Assembly: GCA_010015585.1 (NCBI GenBank)
Contig: ML975171.1
DNA from: Eremomyces bilateralis CBS 781.70
Lineage: Eukaryota
Direction: 5' to 3' (one strand)
Length of the DNA: 50,427 bases
Position 1 is the first letter of the stretch. Every line of letters starts with the position of its first letter. A program made the position numbers and the translations under genes. Below, piece after piece: positions 38,073 to 50,080 of the stretch. Below the pieces are notes generated by a model. That model saw nothing but the letters and a program-made list of their open reading frames with translations, was not told the DNA's origin and made no database searches.

Positions 38073-39348
38073 CTAATCCAAGATAGACCGGAGATATTCC
38101 CGGATCCCTTGGGAGCTTTTCTGGTTTTTAAATGGCATGCTATGGTCAACAACGGGCTCTACATGACAGGCCCTCGGTGCCACGATCAACGTAACCTTTC
38201 CAATATTCTCCCTTTCCCCTTCCCACGCCGCCTTCGCAGCATTCTCAAACCCAGTCGTGATTTTCTGCGCGATCTCCCGGATACTATCGATCATGATCTC
38301 CCCTCCTCCGCCCCAGATCATCATATGTGTCACGAGCGATGCCGCGCCTTCCCACCATTGCTCGTCGCAGACAATGGGCTCGCTCCACTCGTCCCCCAGA
38401 TGGCCCGGACGCGGTTTTCGTCCTTTGCCAATACCGGAATATAGAAAGTTCTTGGCGGCCCAGACCACTGTGGCGGGATAGAAAATGTCGGATCCGATGT
38501 TTTCTATCATAGAATCTTCGGTGCCGCGGAAGGAAATCCACGGCGAAAAGGCGACGGCGGCGTGCAACGGACCGGGAAGGTTCAGGGGAGGAATGTCGGG
38601 GTGTGGATGTGCGATGTGCGAGAGGACTGATAGAACCAGGTTACCACCTGCCGAATCACCGGCGATGATGAGCTAGGCCTTGTAAGCGCATTCCAAATCT
38701 TAGAACTCATATACCAGGCAGTGCGAACCTGAGATGTATCTTTCTTCTCGACCTCGATCATATGCCGCAGGAAATTTACGCCCTGTCGCAGCTGCGTCGG
38801 ATATGGCTTTTCAGGTGCAAGAGAGTACGCCAGCACGACAACCGACATGTTCTTCCCACTCTTCCTCATCTCTTTCATGAGGCTGAACAGAAACCGCACA
38901 TGGCCAGGCATGATGGCGTCGATGAACCCGCCGCCGTGGTAATATATCATGGTATACTTTGCATTCCGTGGACCAAGCCAATGCGCTAGGATCCCCTCGG
39001 GCAACTTGACGTTGTCGAGCTTCTTTCTCCTGCGCTTGACCATTCGATCGAGCACCTTGTCCGACCCGGGTGTCATACCCCGGGCTTGTTGAAGCGTGCG
39101 GCTCATGACAGCATCGCGAACTGCTGCGTAGGCCAAGTCGTTGATATACCTCGGGGCCTTTTTGTCTTTGCTCTTAAACGGGTATGTGATCATGTGGATG
39201 CTGCCGGGTATCGCTATTCATCCGAGTCGTGATGTATCAGAACCAATTGCGATTTCATTTGTATGGGATATCATCCGGGTTCTTCTCACTTACCGGCGTG
39301 CAAAATCACAGGAAACAGCGTAATCACGCTCTTGGGTTCGATCTCCAT
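38073..39348 (-). CDS. Alpha/beta hydrolase fold-3 (HSL-like esterase; Say1/steryl acetyl hydrolase-like), 3 exons
   Basis: YYHGGGF oxyanion motif. After the intron near 38728-38672 the frame reads LIIAGDSAGGNL (nucleophile elbow) and continues into FSPW..GGGEIM..CHVEP. Exon 1 is MEIEPKSVITLFPVILHA with a GTAAGT donor. Confidence 0.85.
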
Positions 39349-40101
39349 ATTCAAGCAAATCGTAGAAGACAATAATAGTTAACGAACGTGGAGCATATCT
39401 GCTGACTTACCGCGTCGCTGCACGAACCAGCGTCGTCCTACATTTACGAGTGAAATGTTCTGGAGCACATGTCGAGAAGCGACCGTCCTGCGGAACTGGG
39501 AAGCTCCATCACCCGAGGCGACTCCATAGCTTATATCAAGTGAGTTTTAGCGGCGGATAGCCCTGTCGTTCCACTCGGCTTGGGTTGGGGAAGTTGGCGA
39601 TCTAGACTCGGGCAGCGGAAAAGCCTTCGAGGTTTCATATTCGTGCCAATTGTTTGATCCGCACATTCCGAGAGCTTGTATATATGTGAAGACTGGAGCA
39701 TCAGCAACCGCGTAGGATGCATGGCCTAAGATCATGTCCCAGACAGGACTAGGGTGGTGTTTGTCCACGATATTCACATGTTTGATGGATCCGATGTTAT
39801 TATTGTCGTGGAGTTGACGGTCATGTGTAGGGATGTGTCGATAACAAGTAGATGGCGTGCATTGTGGGCATATTGTGGCGCATTGAAACAATCACGTGAA
39901 CTGAATACATACATAGTACTCAGGCTGGCGTGGCTGGCTAATCGAGGCGAGGCGTCGCGAGGCCCTCGCCTCGCCTCGCCTCGTTCCTCGATCAAGGCGT
40001 CGCTATTTCCCTGTATCACGTGTTGCTAGTCCCGTTTAGTCGTATGCTACCAATCTTTCATCGTCGTAGTCCGTATTTTCTGGATCTGACCCAGATTCTA
40101 T

Positions 40102-42310
40102 CCCTTCGGCCGCTGAAACATTGCCCCCTAGCCTAGGGTGGCACATACCAACATACAGGGGGCAGCCGCCCAATCAGATGTCGCTGTAGTAGATATTGCT
40201 CGCTCTCCATGATACTAGATACTATTCTTTAAAGCGCGATATCTTGCTATGATAGTTATTCCAGCAGCCACTATCTGTACAGAGAGGGACATTGCAGACA
40301 CTACAGCCAAATAACGTCTTTCCAGGAGACTTGCGAAGCACTCCGTTAACTTCAACGACGTCTTTCCGAAGTACTCCATTAATATCAAGAACGTCTCCAA
40401 ATTTGCGCTTTCTTGTACTAGAAAAGATCATCCGACAGCCTACGCAGCGAGCTTGCTCAGTTAATGGTATTAACCTGTGCTCTGCAAGGGGTATCTGTAG
40501 TAGATTGGCCTGCGGAGCCTCATAAGTCTGGGCTAGTCGCTGTTCAAATTGAGCAAGCTTATGCTCTCTGAAGACATCCTCTGAATATCGGAATAACTGT
40601 GTCCATAGCTCTGCTCGGAAATTCTTATGATCCATATACTGTTGTCCGTGCAGCTGTCGTCCTATTAGATAGGCGTTTAAGATTGATGTATCGATGATCC
40701 AGAACCAAAGAGGATACCAATTGCGAAGGGAGATTCGTTGCGTAGAATAATAGCTGCGGAGCTGATCAGCTATATCGACGCCTCCCATAAAGTGGTTATA
40801 GTCGTCGATAAAGATAGGAATTGGAAGGTTCTTTCGTACGTTATTTGCGAAGACCTTCCGTACAATAGGTCCGTTTGTAGACGTAAGTGCAGGGCGGCGT
40901 CTTAAGCGGACGATTGTCTGTTCCTCCCCAGCATCATGGACTGTAGAGCAAGCGAGGACAGTATTATTGGCCTGCCACGCAAAGCAGATCACACCTGGAT
41001 CTAAGGGATCCTCCTTCTGCTCCTCCTGCTCCTCCTGCTGCTCCTGCTTTGCGCGCTTTGTCTGCGAGGCTCCTTGGGAGGCAGCTTGGGAGGCAGTTTG
41101 TGATATTCTTGAAGTCTCTGACGGTTCCTTCTTGATCTTCCTTCGTGCGACAATGGAAGCTGTAGTATTCCACGCTAAACGCTTAGAACAGTACACCTTA
41201 AGATTAATCAGAAAGGCAGGGAACTCCGGGTGCCGTCGAGTAGTTCCGCAAGCTCCAACTCCTGTTTCTCGAAGTTTCCGAAGTAATGGAACACGTGTAA
41301 AGAAGTTGTCCATGTAAATAACATGCGGCGTATCTTTTGGAAGTTGTTGAGCAAGCTGGAATACCATCGATTCAGCCAACGAGAGATCTTTCTGCTTTAC
41401 TACCTCTCCGTAGCTTTTGGACTTTGAAGACCATACGAAGGCGTATGTATAGCCAGCTTCACAAAGGGAGAAGATCTTATAGCCTTCCTTAATAGGCTTA
41501 TTTGGAGCCTTAACTGTATGCTTGCTTCGTCCAAAGAATCGAATCATCATCTCATCAATTGAGACGTTGACCCCAGGCTTCCAATAACGCGCACAGTTCT
41601 CCCGGAACTCCGAAGCAATTGGATCAAGCTTATACCACCAATTCCGTCTCTTCTCTTGTGCATCGTCGTCCGAGTCATCATTTCCTTCCTGAACAGCCTC
41701 TTGAGGCGTTTCTGGAGGGCTGATATGGAGGAATCTCTTCAGGTCTTCGAACCTATTGAGACTAAGATTTTCCGCGCATATATGTCGGCCAAATTTAGAT
41801 TTCCAGTAGTCTTCGTGCGCAGGGAGGCGCACTACGCCCATGTACCATAGATGAAGACCCCGATAAAGACCTTAATTTCAGATGCTGTCGTAGGGCACCA
41901 GCTTCGCTTCCCTGCAATGCCTGCTTCCTTAGCTCTTGCATATTTATTGGTATTCTCCGCGATCGTTTGGAAGTGTTGATCAGTAAGGAATAGCTTAAAG
42001 AGATTGTACGGGTCTGTTTTATTCCCGTCCGGGATCTGGATTGCTGGTAATCGAGAAATATTGCGATATGGGAGCGGATCGTAGCTTGGAGGCTCCGGAA
42101 TTGCTTTAATCAGTGTTGTAGGCTCTAATTTGGCACATTTAGAAGGCCTACCCGACATTATTAATTGAAGAATGATATAACTCTACTTTGTACTCACGAT
42201 TTGGATACTGCGCGACGAGATACCGACGAGCTCTGATTGGGTGATCATTTACGGTACAGGCTGGTCCGTGCCATCATAGGCTAGGGGGCATTATTTCAGC
42301 GGCCGAAGGG
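40102..42310 (-). mobile_element. piggyBac-like DNA transposon with 43-bp TIRs
   Basis: TIRs 40102-40144 and 42268-42310 match at 39/43 and begin CCCTTCGGCCGCTGAAA. Internal inverted 10-mer CCCAATCAGA at 40169 and 42232. The element encloses a DDD transposase. Confidence 0.9.
40222..42158 (-). pseudogene. piggyBac (PGBD4-like) transposase, frameshifted by a 5-nt insertion at ~41845-41849
   Basis: Catalytic motifs VSIDEMM, YMDNFFT and GGVDIADQ, plus a C-terminal Cys-rich domain. The motif EIKVFIGVFIY-MGVVRLP is split across two frames. Confidence 0.88.
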
Positions 42311-42870
42311 ATAGGATTCACCGACCTTAGCGATCGTGGTATTGGTCCCTATATAGTATACAGGACTACGGATGGTATATTTAACCATGGTTCGCGCAGG
42401 CCTCGCGAGGCGAGGCGCTTAGTCATCCCTCGCGACGCCTCGCGACGCCTCGATTAGCCAGCCTCTCATAGTGGCGTGGTAGCGTGGATTAACCATCCAT
42501 GTGCCTGGTTTCCGTTTATCCTCCATCCGTATTATTGTCCTGCGACACAGGTCGAGATGAAAAGACAATAGGAATTGATCCGCCGGGAAATTGTTTGAAT
42601 ATCTCGATAAATATATCATATGTATCCACAACCAAGTCGTCCATGTGCGGAACGTTGCTTTTTCCCGATCGCTGTGCAACATCCAGGTTCCTTGCAGGGA
42701 ATTGAATGGCTCTCATCATGTCCACGCAGCAGTGCAGCTCCTCGAAAATCCCCGCGTACATGGAGGTTGACCGTCGCACATTACTCCGTCTGAGGAGGAC
42801 TTTCCCCATCGTCCGCGTATAGCTCCTTTAACGAGTATTCTTGCATCAAACTGCAGATATCTGAAAGGCC

Positions 42871-44816: not shown

Positions 44817-47800
44817 ATGTCATCTTCTGGAGACGCCGGTGGTAGAGTATGCTCGAATTGTAGGTCCTGGAGGGTTGATAAGGAGTTTACTTCGAAGCGT
44901 CGCCGACTACTGGTCAAGAAGTGCTGGCGATGTCGTTACGGCCACGATCATGGTGATGCTGTAGGTAGAGTGAATGATTCGAATACGTTCAAGCTGACAT
45001 CATTAGACCCCCTATCTTCGACCCGCCGCTACGTCTACGCGAGACGCCTCGTCCTCGCAACCAACCGACACTGAGGACGATAGGTCTTGGAGGCGGGAGG
45101 CTTCCCTATTCCACCGTGCCGGAATACATAGCCAAGACGATGGGGATAGAGCCGCTGCTCGCAGGGAGTATAATGCTATGTCACGGGCTCATCGCGCTGC
45201 TACTCGTCTACACCGTAATGTCCAGCCGCTACCAACGTTCGGGGATTATCTCCAACGACGGAGGCTATCACCTTCACATCAACCGCAATCAGGTCAAGGT
45301 GCTCCTGATGATGGCGACAACGGGTTTAGGCGTCTAAGTCCGATCTCCTTGGCCGGGTTATCCCAAATTCAGGGCGATGAGCAACCCCGTACACGTCATC
45401 AGGAAGATGAGCAACGCGATCGTACACGTCAACGGACAGATGAGCAAAGCGATCGTACACGTCAACGGAGAGATGAGCAACGCAATCGTACACGTCAACA
45501 GCGAGATGATGGTCGTACAGAAGCACTTCAGCGCGGAGATGTTCGCCTCGATCCCCAGTCCCGGGATTTCAACATCCAGGATGCCAATCTTTCCGAGCAG
45601 GATTGGGGATACGTTAAGGCCTTCCACCAGGAGATGGCTAGTTTGAACCTTGAGCACTGCGCCCAATGTGACGAAAAATGGTTTGATATGCGTCTCGTGG
45701 ATGGTATATGTCATCGATGTAGGATCGACGATAGGAAACGAGGCGATTTACCACCGCTGTATTCCGCAGAGAATCATTTAAATCCTGGTCTGGGCCCGTC
45801 GCATCACAATCTTCCTGAGTTATCTCAAGTAGAGGAGCTCCTTATCGCCCGTGTCCATTGTGCTGTGGAGGTTCGAAAGGTTAACGGTCTTCAGTACCGT
45901 TATACAGGACATATCATCAACTTCATGAGAGACGTGGGGCGCGTATACAATCGACTACCTCTCCTTCCGAAAGACCTTGAGATCGTTGTCCTTCGCCCTG
46001 CGAATTGGGATCAGGATCCCCGTATGCAGCGCCAGTTTCGACGCGACTACCGTGTTCGCCGTACTGTCATCGAGCAGTGGCTAACCCATCTCAAGGTTCA
46101 CCCCCCTAGATATCTGTCGTGAGCAGTTGCTAACCCATCTAAAGGTTTACCACCCCGGATATCGCGATGTCGTCGTCGACCCTAGCCGCGTGCAGCATCT
46201 TCCTATTGATGATAGTATTATGGAAGAGGTCGGCGTCCAGACTATTGAGGAAGAAGAGCTAGGAGGCGGCGATGACGATACGGGAGACGAGGTAGATTAC
46301 GTCGCCGTAGTCCCGGATCTCCTCCAACCCCAGACGGAGATGGAGCAACTTCGGCAGCATGTCGATGATGCTCATGAACGTCGACGTGAGCATCTGACGA
46401 TGCCTGAGTTTAGATTGACTCCTCTATCTGAGTTTAACCACTCTCAGGCTCTTCTAAGCCTGGCGTTCCCAAGCTGCTTCCCCTGCGGTATTGGGGACTT
46501 CGTTCATCCCCGTCTCCGTAAGGTAGAGTATCGTGAATATATTAAGCATCTGATGAGGTTCCACGATGGTCGCTTTGCGAAACATCCGCGCCTACGGTAT
46601 GTCCTTTTTAACACTCTTTTCCGGAAACAGGTCAGTACCCGTGCATCTTACTTCGTTCGTCAACGTCCTGAGCATAATGATCTATCTCTTGAGGAACTCC
46701 GTGCTGCTTTTGCGGATGACTCTCCTGAAGCCCAGGCCCTTCTGAACTCTATTATCCGTTTTTCAGGGAGTCTACGCGGCACGCGGCCCTATTGGATTGG
46801 GCGTGGTAAGCAGCTTGAAGCTACCGTGCAATGGTTTGGGTCTCCCGACATCTTTTTAACGCTGTCGGCCGCCGATTACCACTGGGATGATCTACAGCGT
46901 CATTTACCTCAATATGAGGAGTGGCGTAATGGATCTCCAGCGGAGCGGATCTCAATCTCACGCCGGAACCTCCGAGACTATCCCCATATCGCCGCCTTCC
47001 TCTTTCATCGGCGCCGTGAGGCTCTCTACAAGAATTTAGTAGATCCTAAGTTTAACATCCGCGATCAATGGGGCCGATACGAGTGGCAGGGTCGCGGCTC
47101 GTCGCACTCACATTTCCTCCTCTGGCTAGACCGTGCCTGCCCTAACAGCGAGCTTGATCGTATCCCTACGGAGGATCTCCCTGCCGCCCTTGAGAAATTT
47201 GCGCAGTTCTGGGGCGGTCACATCACGGCGTTAAACCCCGAACCTTCCCGTCGGGTGCGACCAGAGGATGAGCGGAGTGCTATCGCGCTAAGTCCCCACA
47301 CCCAGGAGAATATACTGGCCCATTACTCGGCTATCATCAACCGTGTACAGAGGCACCACTGCAGTGATGCGTACTGCCTCCGTACGAATAAACGCACTGA
47401 CCGGAAGGAGTGTCGTTTCTACGCCCCATGGCGGATCCGGGATGTGCCTGTGGTTACGAAGGATGAAGGCAACCCTAGGTTCTTTAACTTTCGCGGTATC
47501 CGGAACGATGATCGGTTAAATCACAGCAACCCTGCCCTTATCACAGCCTGGCTTGCGAATATCGATATCACGCCCTGTACAGGGAGTCGAGCAGTATTAG
47601 CGTATCTTGGAAAGTACTGCTCAAAACCAGAGAAGAAGACGGCCACCTTCCACGATATCCTAAAACATCTCCTAACGATCGTTCCCGAACATACGCGCCG
47701 GCCATTCCTTTCGCTGACCACGAAGATTATGAATCGTCTAATTGGTGAGCGGGATTGGTCAGCCCAGGAGGTTTCCCATATTCTTCTTGATCTCCCCCTC

Positions 47801-50080
47801 CAAGTCTCTTCACGCGTGGTGATTTCCGTCGATTGTCGCCCGGAGGTGGAGCAGCCCCAAGGAATTGAAATCCAGGACGATGGGACTATCCAGAGCGGCC
47901 TCTCCCCTCTTCAAAAGTATAAGCAAAGACCTGAAGCGTTTAACGACATTTCCTATCTTGAGTTTCTACGTTGCTATGAATTCGCACGGGTTAACTCAAT
48001 TCGGAAGAGAGGAGAAGGGAAGGAGCGGGCGTTAAATTACTTCCCCCGATATTCATCGGTCGGCGATACCCGCGAAGACTGGTGTCGCGTTAAACTGATG
48101 CTACATCACCCCTTCCGCCGTATGGATGATCTCCTCCGGCCCGAGCTTGATGGTCTGCTTTTTGCGTCGTATTCTGAGGTGTATTCCGCGTCTTGCGTGA
48201 ATGGTCAGCATAACCATCCGGTGGATCATTACGACCCTATTGTTCTTGCGGACGAGGATGAGTTTGAAGAAGGCGCCAATGAGGAGGAGGATCAGCAAGG
48301 GAGCTGGGATGAGCTCGCCGGTCAACTGCCTGGTCGCGATAGAACCGTTCTAGAGGACCCAGATGCCCTTGGTCAACGACCTCTTGACCGTGAGTACGAT
48401 TGGGCGTCCCATGTCGGGAAGTATGAGATTACGAAGGAGTGGTGGGCCACTGCAAAGGCCCAGTATCCCTATATTCATGAAGCTGTTCCCTTCGCACCTG
48501 ATACCGTTGAAAAGCTGAACGCTAAACAACGTATAACATACGATATCCTGACGACCCACTTCGCACACGTTATTGCGACAGGCACTCCTGGGCCTCAGCT
48601 TCTGATTAACGTTGATGGCGAGGCGGGTACAGGGAAGTCTTTTGTTATTCAGCTGATCTCCTCGCATCTCCAGGAGGCAGCTTCACGGCATAGATTACCG
48701 AACCCTGTTCTTCGTGCTGCGCCTACGGGCGTCGCAGCTCACAGTCTCTCCGCGTCGACACTACATACTCTTTTCCGTCTTCCTGTCCAGAATATCAATT
48801 CTCTCGATCCCCTCCGGCCGGCTGCTCTTCAAGCCGCTCAGGCCACCTTCCGGGGTATACGGTACCTGATTATCGATGAAAAATCTATGATCGGCCTTCG
48901 CCAGCTCTCCCATATTGACCGTCGTTGCCGCGAGATCTTTCCTGGCGTAGACAAGTCTTTCGGTGGTCTCTGTATTCTCCTCTGTGGCGACTTCTTCCAG
49001 CTTCCTCCGGTCTTGGCAACTGCTCTTTATAACCAGAAGAGTCATCTAAATCTAGATGAACGGCATGGGCGTAGTATCTACTACCAATTCGAGCGAACGA
49101 TCAAACTTGATGAAGTCGTGCGGCAGCAGGGTAATGACGTTGAGTCGATTCAGTTCCGCCAGGCTCTCGATCACCTGCGGATAGGCTCCGCAACTCGTGA
49201 CGACTGGACACTGCTTAGTACACGAGTACAGGCCATGCTTCCGTCTGAGGAGGTAGCATCGTTTGGGGACACTCTCCGTATCTTTGGTAAGAAAGCGCCG
49301 GTCGCCGTGTATAACTACTGTCGTTTACGCGATCTCCGTTCTCCTGTTATGATATGTCGAGCTATTCACGAAGGAGGGGCGAAGGCAGAAAAAGTTCCGA
49401 CTAATGAGGCAGGAAACCTCCATTCGGAGATTCCGATGGCGTTGGGAACCCGTATTATGTTGACAGAGAATCTCTGGACCGAACGAGGCCTGGTGAACGG
49501 TGCGATGGGAACAGTGCGTGATATTAGCTGGCAGGCTGGTGCTGATATCCATAAGGATCCTCCTTCCGTACTCCTCGTTCAATTCGATCGGTATGATGGA
49601 CCGACGTTGGACGTAGGCGGCATTGGCTTGGTCCCAATCCTCCTATCACGCCGCGAGTTCTATATCGAGAATACTTCCTGCTCACGTTCACAGTTCCCGT
49701 TGACCATCGCCTATGCCATCACAACGCATAAGTCGCAGGGAATGACTCTAGAACGGGCTGTGCTGGACATTTCGGAGCGGGAGTTCGCGCCTGGCCTGAC
49801 CTATGTGGCAGTCTCCCGTGTGAAAAGCCTTAGAGGGATCATGTTTGAGGCTCCATTCGACTTGCAGGATTTGAACCCTCGCACGGAGAGCGAGACGATG
49901 AAGTTCCGGAAGGAGGATGCGCAGAGGAGGGAGAACCAGCATATCACGGCAGAGGTTTGTTTACATTATTTGAATCAATCGCGCGGTGTTGACATAGTGT
50001 AGGATATCCGACGGGCAGTCGGATCGTCATCCTCAATTCCGCTTTCTTCGCAGGCGGCACTGTTAGGACGGAGTTCATAG
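44817..50080 (+). CDS. Helitron Rep/helicase (HUH endonuclease + PIF1 SF1B helicase); predicted exons 44817-44960, 45007-46095, 46145-49954, 50003-50080
   Basis: Rep motifs FLTLSAADYHW, RYEWQGRGSSHSH and YLGKYCSK. Helicase motifs GEAGTGKS, IIDEKSM, GDFFQLPPV, QFPLTIAYAITTHKSQGMTL and YVAVSRV. N-terminal CxxC pairs. Three 46-49-nt GT-AG introns give one continuous frame; if the last is unspliced the CDS stops at 50002. Confidence 0.9.
45376..45519 (+). repeat. 33-bp (11-aa) coding tandem repeat in the RepHel N-terminus, ~4.5 units
   Basis: GATGAGCAA..CGTACACGTCA units encoding DEQPRTRHQE / DEQRDRTRQRT / DEQSDRTRQRR / DEQRNRTRQQR. Confidence 0.9.
46072..46163 (+). repeat. 49-bp-period tandem duplication spanning the predicted intron 46096-46144
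   Basis: GAGCAGTGGCTAACCCATCTCAAGGTTCACCCCCCTAGATATC vs GAGCAGTTGCTAACCCATCTAAAGGTTTACCACCCCGGATATC, 37/43 identical. Confidence 0.9.

Follow-up and report, generated by a model that had tools for sequence, protein, structure and literature searches.

Host-factor-anchored integration is known from Ty3/TFIIIB, Ty1/Pol III, Ty5/Sir4, Tf1/Sap1 and Tn7/TnsD, which insert at a set distance, some of them in a fixed orientation, from a protein-bound site and not at a sequence. All of these are either LTR retrotransposons or elements of bacteria. What chiefly limits DNA transposons as tools is their choice of target, and the eukaryotic cut-and-paste transposons of the hAT superfamily (Hermes, PDB 6dww and 8edg; Ac/Ds; the fungal Restless; Ds and MITE derivatives) are held to be nearly unselective. 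They have short TIRs beginning CAGG, subterminal repeats, 8-bp TSDs, a transposase with BED, DDE and dimerisation domains, and non-autonomous derivatives, and a 2026 review describes their target preference as weak (PMC13728883).

Canonical piggyBac elements (T. ni, PDB 6x67; piggyBat, PDB 9c0f) carry a PF13843 DDD transposase with a C-terminal Cys-rich region between CCC...GGG ends, and are flanked by a 4-bp TTAA TSD. In the T. ni transposase, R275 and Y283 of the omega-loop contact the TTAA hairpin and the target (PMC7351741). Rare ATAG, TTAT, ATAT and ATAA flanks were listed by Bouallegue (2017; PMC5381638) and ascribed to mutation, Belfiori (2013; PMC3864998) described a truffle element with a 'TA' TSD, and Ivancic (2025; PMC13461360) used TTAA as a filter.

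The locus considered here, a piggyBac element inside a hAT MITE, lies in a window of 50,427 nucleotides (the whole stretch of DNA that was analysed) from the 26.9-Mb assembly, in 95 contigs, of Eremomyces bilateralis CBS 781.70. The window is gene-dense fungal DNA, and the nested unit stands between two divergently oriented genes, a minus-strand hydrolase gene that starts near 39217 and a plus-strand ORF beginning at about 42865. Both junctions between the MITE and unique DNA were spanned without differences by contigs of one sample, which is possibly the assembly's own source and so not independent; the inner MITE/piggyBac junctions were bridged by none of the contig pieces listed for that sample, in which the piggyBac was read at about twice the depth of unique DNA. 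Run X3 contained hardly any of the stretch. Elsewhere in the window, positions 45007-50002 hold a Helitron-type Rep/PIF1 helicase region (PF14214, PF05970, DUF6570) with three CACGTG hexamers directly upstream (44476, 44621 and 44643). The features of the nested unit are collected in Table 1.

Table 1. Features of the nested hAT MITE/piggyBac unit and its flanks (window positions).
Feature	Position	Strand	Remarks
CACGTG E-box, host DNA	39893..39898	.	Read from the sequence; 12 bp to the relic TSD, 14 bp to the 8 bases adjoining the present terminus
Likely relic of left 8-bp TSD, ACATAGTA	39911..39918	+	Followed by 2 filler bases (CT); read as TSD from the 12-bp spacing of the hAT family
hAT MITE, left (5') half	39921..40101	+	TIR (39921-39949) damaged; subterminal CGAGG/CCTCG repeats extend to about 39990
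Internal CACGTG of the window MITE	40017-40022		Within left half
AT, left copy of the 2 added bp at target CTATAG	40100..40101	+	Empty sites in 5/5 MITEs
piggyBac-superfamily element, 2209 bp	40102..42310	-	CCC...GGG ends
Imperfect piggyBac TIRs, about 49 bp	40102-40150 / 42262-42310
PF13843 transposase gene	40222..42158	-	Disrupted by a 5-bp insertion (about 41845-41849) that the second copy lacks
AT, right copy of the 2 added bp	42311..42312	+
hAT MITE, right (3') half	42311..42465	+	Subterminal repeats about 42398-42452; TIR 42446-42465, last G changed to C
Likely relic of right 8-bp TSD, TCATAGTG	42466..42473	+	Putative, as for the left relic

The initial annotation of this DNA had described a piggyBac element within a second, inverted-repeat shell, and its anatomy of the shell is largely borne out. 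The perfect 18-bp inverted repeats are found at 39932-39949 and 42446-42463, 170 bp to the left and 153 bp to the right of the piggyBac ends (40102 and 42310); the CGAGG/CCTCG arrays beside both repeats, the CAGGCTGGC start at 39921 and an offset CATAGT on either side are all present, and the shell, estimated at about 320-335 bp, measures 334 bp after removal of the inner element and one AT. The inverted match reported between the two layers (CGTAGTCC/GGACTACG) also exists, but as a short 8-bp palindromic feature that recurs in empty MITEs (L059).

The genome matches the 18-mer exactly at 18 places and a reversed control nowhere; the 18-mer is therefore the end of a repeated element and not a chance repeat. 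The true TIR is longer, 20 bp beginning CA (CAGG), and since it is shared with elements encoding a PF05699 transposase and accompanied by 8-bp TSDs, the shell is a hAT MITE, as its hAT-like ends had suggested. The TSD is present in all eight two-ended copies other than the window's (seven perfect, one with one mismatch). Either a hAT or a Mutator transposase with the same ends had been proposed as the thing to look for; the former was found, and Mutator or any other superfamily is ruled out for the shell by the 8-bp TSD and PF05699. The shell has the properties of a MITE, being short (334 bp in the window, 294-365 bp in four two-ended empty copies), non-coding, present in six copies, albeit a low number, and sharing its ends with 2.78-kb elements. 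The earlier remark that no 8-bp TSD is clear applies to the window copy only, where ACATAGTA on the left (followed by CT) and TCATAGTG on the right agree at 6/8 bases. This copy has damaged ends, with nine extra bases in the left TIR and a terminal G to C change on the right; such ends and flanks resemble what we take to be hAT excision footprints, and may have arisen by aborted excision followed by repair.

A search of the genome by DNA, with the whole region as query, returned one composite, five empty MITEs (four two-ended and one truncated), five 2.78-kb elements and one solo piggyBac, 98% identical to the passenger. The five empty MITEs retain an uninterrupted CTATAG, and the piggyBac thus inserted into a MITE that was already there, which was one of the possibilities first raised. 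Two others were that the shell is non-autonomous and carries the foreign transposon as cargo, and that the piggyBac targets the MITE. The size of shell plus passenger (2.5 kb), near that of the autonomous hAT (2.78 kb), and the central position of the insertion are what a mobile composite or a MITE-seeking piggyBac might produce. However, the unit occurs at one locus, not in the several whole copies at separate loci, each with its own TSD, that define a composite transposon; five of the six MITEs are empty, no MITE surrounds the second piggyBac copy, the shell is damaged at both termini, and the passenger's transposase gene is frameshifted by the 5-bp insertion (that of the solo copy has two nonsense codons). 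Moreover, the shell holds five TATA sites, and C is the commonest base adjoining the TAT flank (23/54), so that CTATAG is an ordinary target. Both possibilities are rejected on the copy census and appear to us very improbable. Chance nesting was to be recognized by a composite at one locus with solo copies of each element common; this is what the copies show, with one composite, five empty MITEs and a solo piggyBac elsewhere in the genome. The nesting, itself an ordinary thing, was very probably a chance event, and the composite is likely inert.

The passenger belongs to the piggyBac superfamily (PF13843, DDE_Tnp_1_7, E 1.5e-43; piggyBat, E 8e-45; T. ni, E 1e-37). Its TIRs begin with CC, as those of piggyBac elements do, the first base depending on whether the added bases are read as a TSD or as part of a blunt insertion; the canonical TTAA target with a 4-bp TSD is not found. 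The nested copy offers a clean comparison of empty and filled site. The empty site is CTATAG in 5/5 MITEs and the filled site CTAT-CCC...GGG-ATAG, and the contigs of the empty copies join 40099 to 42311 with two shared letters. Only 2 bp were therefore added, which excludes here both a 4-bp TSD and a 'TA' TSD, the latter requiring four added bases.

The generality of this target was assessed on 80 metagenomic loci of piggyBac relatives, with the ends located without assuming any terminal letters. Forty loci were dropped for want of an inverted repeat with a score of at least 14, and so were a further 12 whose repeat, located blind, began elsewhere than at a matching CC terminus (in nine of the 12, TATCC is seen on one or both arms); the remaining 28, less one duplicate, gave 27 distinct relatives. 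TAT and ATA flank the element on its two sides in 25 of the 27, one relative (L167) has TAA and ATA, and neither TTAA flanks (0/27) nor a 3-bp or 4-bp direct repeat (0/27) occurred among them. It should be noted that TAT and ATA are self-complementary, so that the flanks of the relatives alone cannot fix the element boundary; the empty site does. A second piggyBac family of the same genome, flanked by TTAT and ATAG, follows the same rule. Within the TATA lineage, one piggyBac (L116, G000:C9, about 17.1-19.4 kb) looks intact, with a 684-aa open frame, a 43-bp inverted repeat and TTAT/ATAG flanks. In 11 of 11 TAT-flanked relatives matched by an omega-loop pattern, R275 is replaced by F, C or S and Y283 by K or R; the strict form of the pattern matched 6/25 loci and the relaxed form 11/25, leaving 14/25 unmatched. 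CACGTG was found within 100 bp of 1/21 piggyBac relatives, which indicates no link between the two.

In the simplest mechanism, TATA would be the site recognised by this piggyBac lineage, and the two strands would be cut 2 nt apart, on either side of the central AT. A blunt, Spy-like insertion at TA^TA without any duplication, with element ends T...A, would yield the same sequence as duplication of AT, and the near invariance of AT (25/27) is compatible with it; we nevertheless consider it unlikely, because piggyBac ends are described as beginning with a conserved C (PMC5381638). The relative with TAA and ATA flanks is weak evidence either way. Compared with canonical piggyBac, then, the window lineage shares the transposase type, the Cys-rich region and the ends, and differs in its TATA target with two added bases and in the replaced omega-loop residues. 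A similar element is Ti-tr1 of Tuber indicum, which is also fungal, belongs to PF13843, has TIRs of 52 bp and shows no TTAA; unlike the window's it is described with a 'TA' TSD, a reading that requires four added bases and not two (Belfiori 2013). The two are probably of one lineage. The AT/TATA rule is thus partly known already. Both elements of the unit are variants of known superfamilies, and the Repbase groups piggyBacA and piggyBacX may already cover the TATA lineage. As the lineage breaks the TTAA/4-bp rule, mining filtered by TTAA, as in PMC13461360, misses such elements.

The coding partner of the MITE is represented by the five 2.78-kb elements, which share both its ends and are 99.8-100% identical to one another; of the five, one is truncated by the end of its contig and another carries a small 5' deletion. 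The copy that was read contains one long open frame, whose product matches PF05699 (E 8.6e-19) and has Hermes among its PDB matches. In an alignment of 33 proteins C79/C82/H106/H111, D221 and C316/H319 are invariant and D289 and E678 nearly so, positions that presumably correspond to the BED finger, the DDE triad and the CxxH motif. The family therefore shows the hallmarks of a hAT: an 8-bp TSD, a short TIR beginning CAGG with subterminal repeats, and a transposase with BED, DDE, CxxH and a C-terminal dimerisation domain. CGAGG/CCTCG occurs 9 and 8 times in the two terminal 200-bp regions of the 2.78-kb element versus 8 times in the middle 2383 bp. Two sister families in the genome are 50% and 42% identical to this family in amino acid sequence, and the closest database proteins only 20-25%. 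When prokaryote genomes and viral contigs were scanned with a four-sequence hAT alignment, no relatives with flanking DNA came up; a word-based protein search gave three distant matches, and an HMM search many hATs, all without DNA context.

Some further observations concern the hATs of this genome, which has 51 PF05699 matches. With the autonomous element the left part of the MITE shares only 76% identity, which suggests an older parent. Solitary damaged ends of the family (L231, G000:C3; L227, C34; L239, C31), one of them with palindromic filler, suggest that aborted excision is frequent. A larger group of hATs with TAGGG ends (L316-L332) has perfect 8-bp TSDs and many long open frames, and a TAGGG-type hAT ends about 20 bp from the 3' flank of one autonomous copy of the present family (L213, G000:C1:1381900-1381970).

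The flanks of the hAT family are mutually unrelated except for one motif, CACGTG. At 7/8 intact 5' (ORF-upstream) ends a gap of 12-13 bp separates the TSD from this hexamer on its outer side; at the remaining end the sequence is CAGGTG and the gap 12. Among the 3' ends it occurs in 2/9, at a gap of 11, in copies that also have the motif on the 5' side (5' versus 3' ends with the motif, 8/8 versus 2/9; Fisher 0.002). Exact CACGTG at that gap is absent from all 55 ends of other hAT families examined in the genome, namely 0/12 and 0/13 ends of the two sister families and 0/30 ends of 15 other TSD-verified hAT insertions (1/30 with one mismatch allowed), and 7/8 against 0/30 gives a Fisher value of 6e-7. 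When every hexamer was scored without bias at 150 offsets, CACGTG at 12-13 came first (7/8), the best unrelated hexamer reaching 2/8, and the background beyond 60 bp was two CACGTG sites in 7.4 kb. Genome-wide, a pattern of motif plus terminus had 13 matches versus 3 in the control; the 13 comprise nine known family ends, one solitary TIR remnant (gap 12) and three sites without any element. A solitary end of ambiguous polarity (C34) has no motif. The window copy fits, with a gap of 12, only if the relic TSD is read correctly. The rule thus rests on eight insertions, the damaged window copy and one remnant, all from a single genome. The eight 8-bp targets themselves have no clear consensus, and the weak symmetric preference that is typical, though not definitive, of hATs is replaced by a strict, oriented motif outside the target, in which this family differs from the hAT systems named above. 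Judged from these flanks, E-box-linked targeting is very probably real. We found no report linking a hAT or other DNA transposon to CACGTG, the E-box or Cbf1 in a literature search that did not extend to most subscription papers or to Repbase, and the E-box rule is a new and testable result from one genome.

Our best explanation of the whole locus, to which we assign a probability of roughly 0.6, is that the MITE landed first, tethered beside an E-box, and that the piggyBac later entered its CTATAG site, likely by chance, adding AT. A factor on the E-box would hold the transpososome, whose two ends differ in their subterminal repeats and which may for that reason be asymmetric, so that insertion would occur about 19-20 bp, centre to centre, from the E-box with the 5' end nearest. 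The fixed distance and orientation to a factor-binding motif, as seen at these ends, are what tethered integration requires. The consensus around the motif is RTCACGTGAY, the site of Cbf1/USF-type factors, and a Cbf1-type bHLH-Zip protein would be the first candidate; among the 12 bHLH matches in the genome is a clear Cbf1 ortholog (E 4e-17 against yeast Cbf1). Proteins other than bHLH factors can bind CACGTG, and with 12 bHLH matches besides, the E-box factor remains a candidate only. From the sequence pattern, the odds that a host-factor tether causes the targeting seem about even. Slightly more doubtful is the fuller proposal that the hAT, in one lineage and recently, came to use a Cbf1-type bHLH at CACGTG, a general regulatory factor of the host, as its dock, and that it inserts some two helical turns away from the centre of the motif with its orientation fixed. 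It would be the DNA-transposon counterpart of Ty3/TFIIIB or Tn7/TnsD, with the difference that the element is a eukaryotic cut-and-paste transposon and its anchor putative.

Two other explanations do without a tether. The hAT transposase itself might read CACGTG, for instance through a BED finger free of the element ends; its BED C/H residues are conserved, and the targeting is specific to one family, sister families at 42-50% identity not following the rule. The element's own subterminal repeats, however, are CGAGG/CCTCG, the autonomous element has no CACGTG, and the flanking consensus is that of Cbf1/USF-type factors, so that we consider direct reading unlikely. We think even less of a passive role, in which a factor on the E-box would open a nucleosome-free gap and bend the DNA without contacting the transposase, which would take the first accessible position. 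The window copy does lie between divergent genes, and open chromatin may contribute, as the sister families have a loose excess of CACGTG (within 60 bp at 4/25 ends, at variable spacing, versus 0/30 for other hATs); yet passive opening explains neither the fixed orientation nor why one family alone keeps the spacing. The 1-2 bp of play in the spacing (11-13 bp), the one-sidedness and the family specificity would together favour a tether over rigid read-out or passive opening.

If the tether is real, a hAT that anchors at the motif of a transcription factor and has copies that seem intact and recently active would let the gain of targeting be tested, the untargeted sister families serving as natural negative controls, and its insertions would be placed beside regulatory sites. 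The transposase of the E-box-linked family has an acidic C-terminal tail (L050:3020-3054), which three sister proteins do not have and which is at most a candidate contact. Finally, the MITE contains an internal CACGTG (in the window copy and in the empty MITEs L059-L063) that the present autonomous element lacks, and may thus spread E-boxes.
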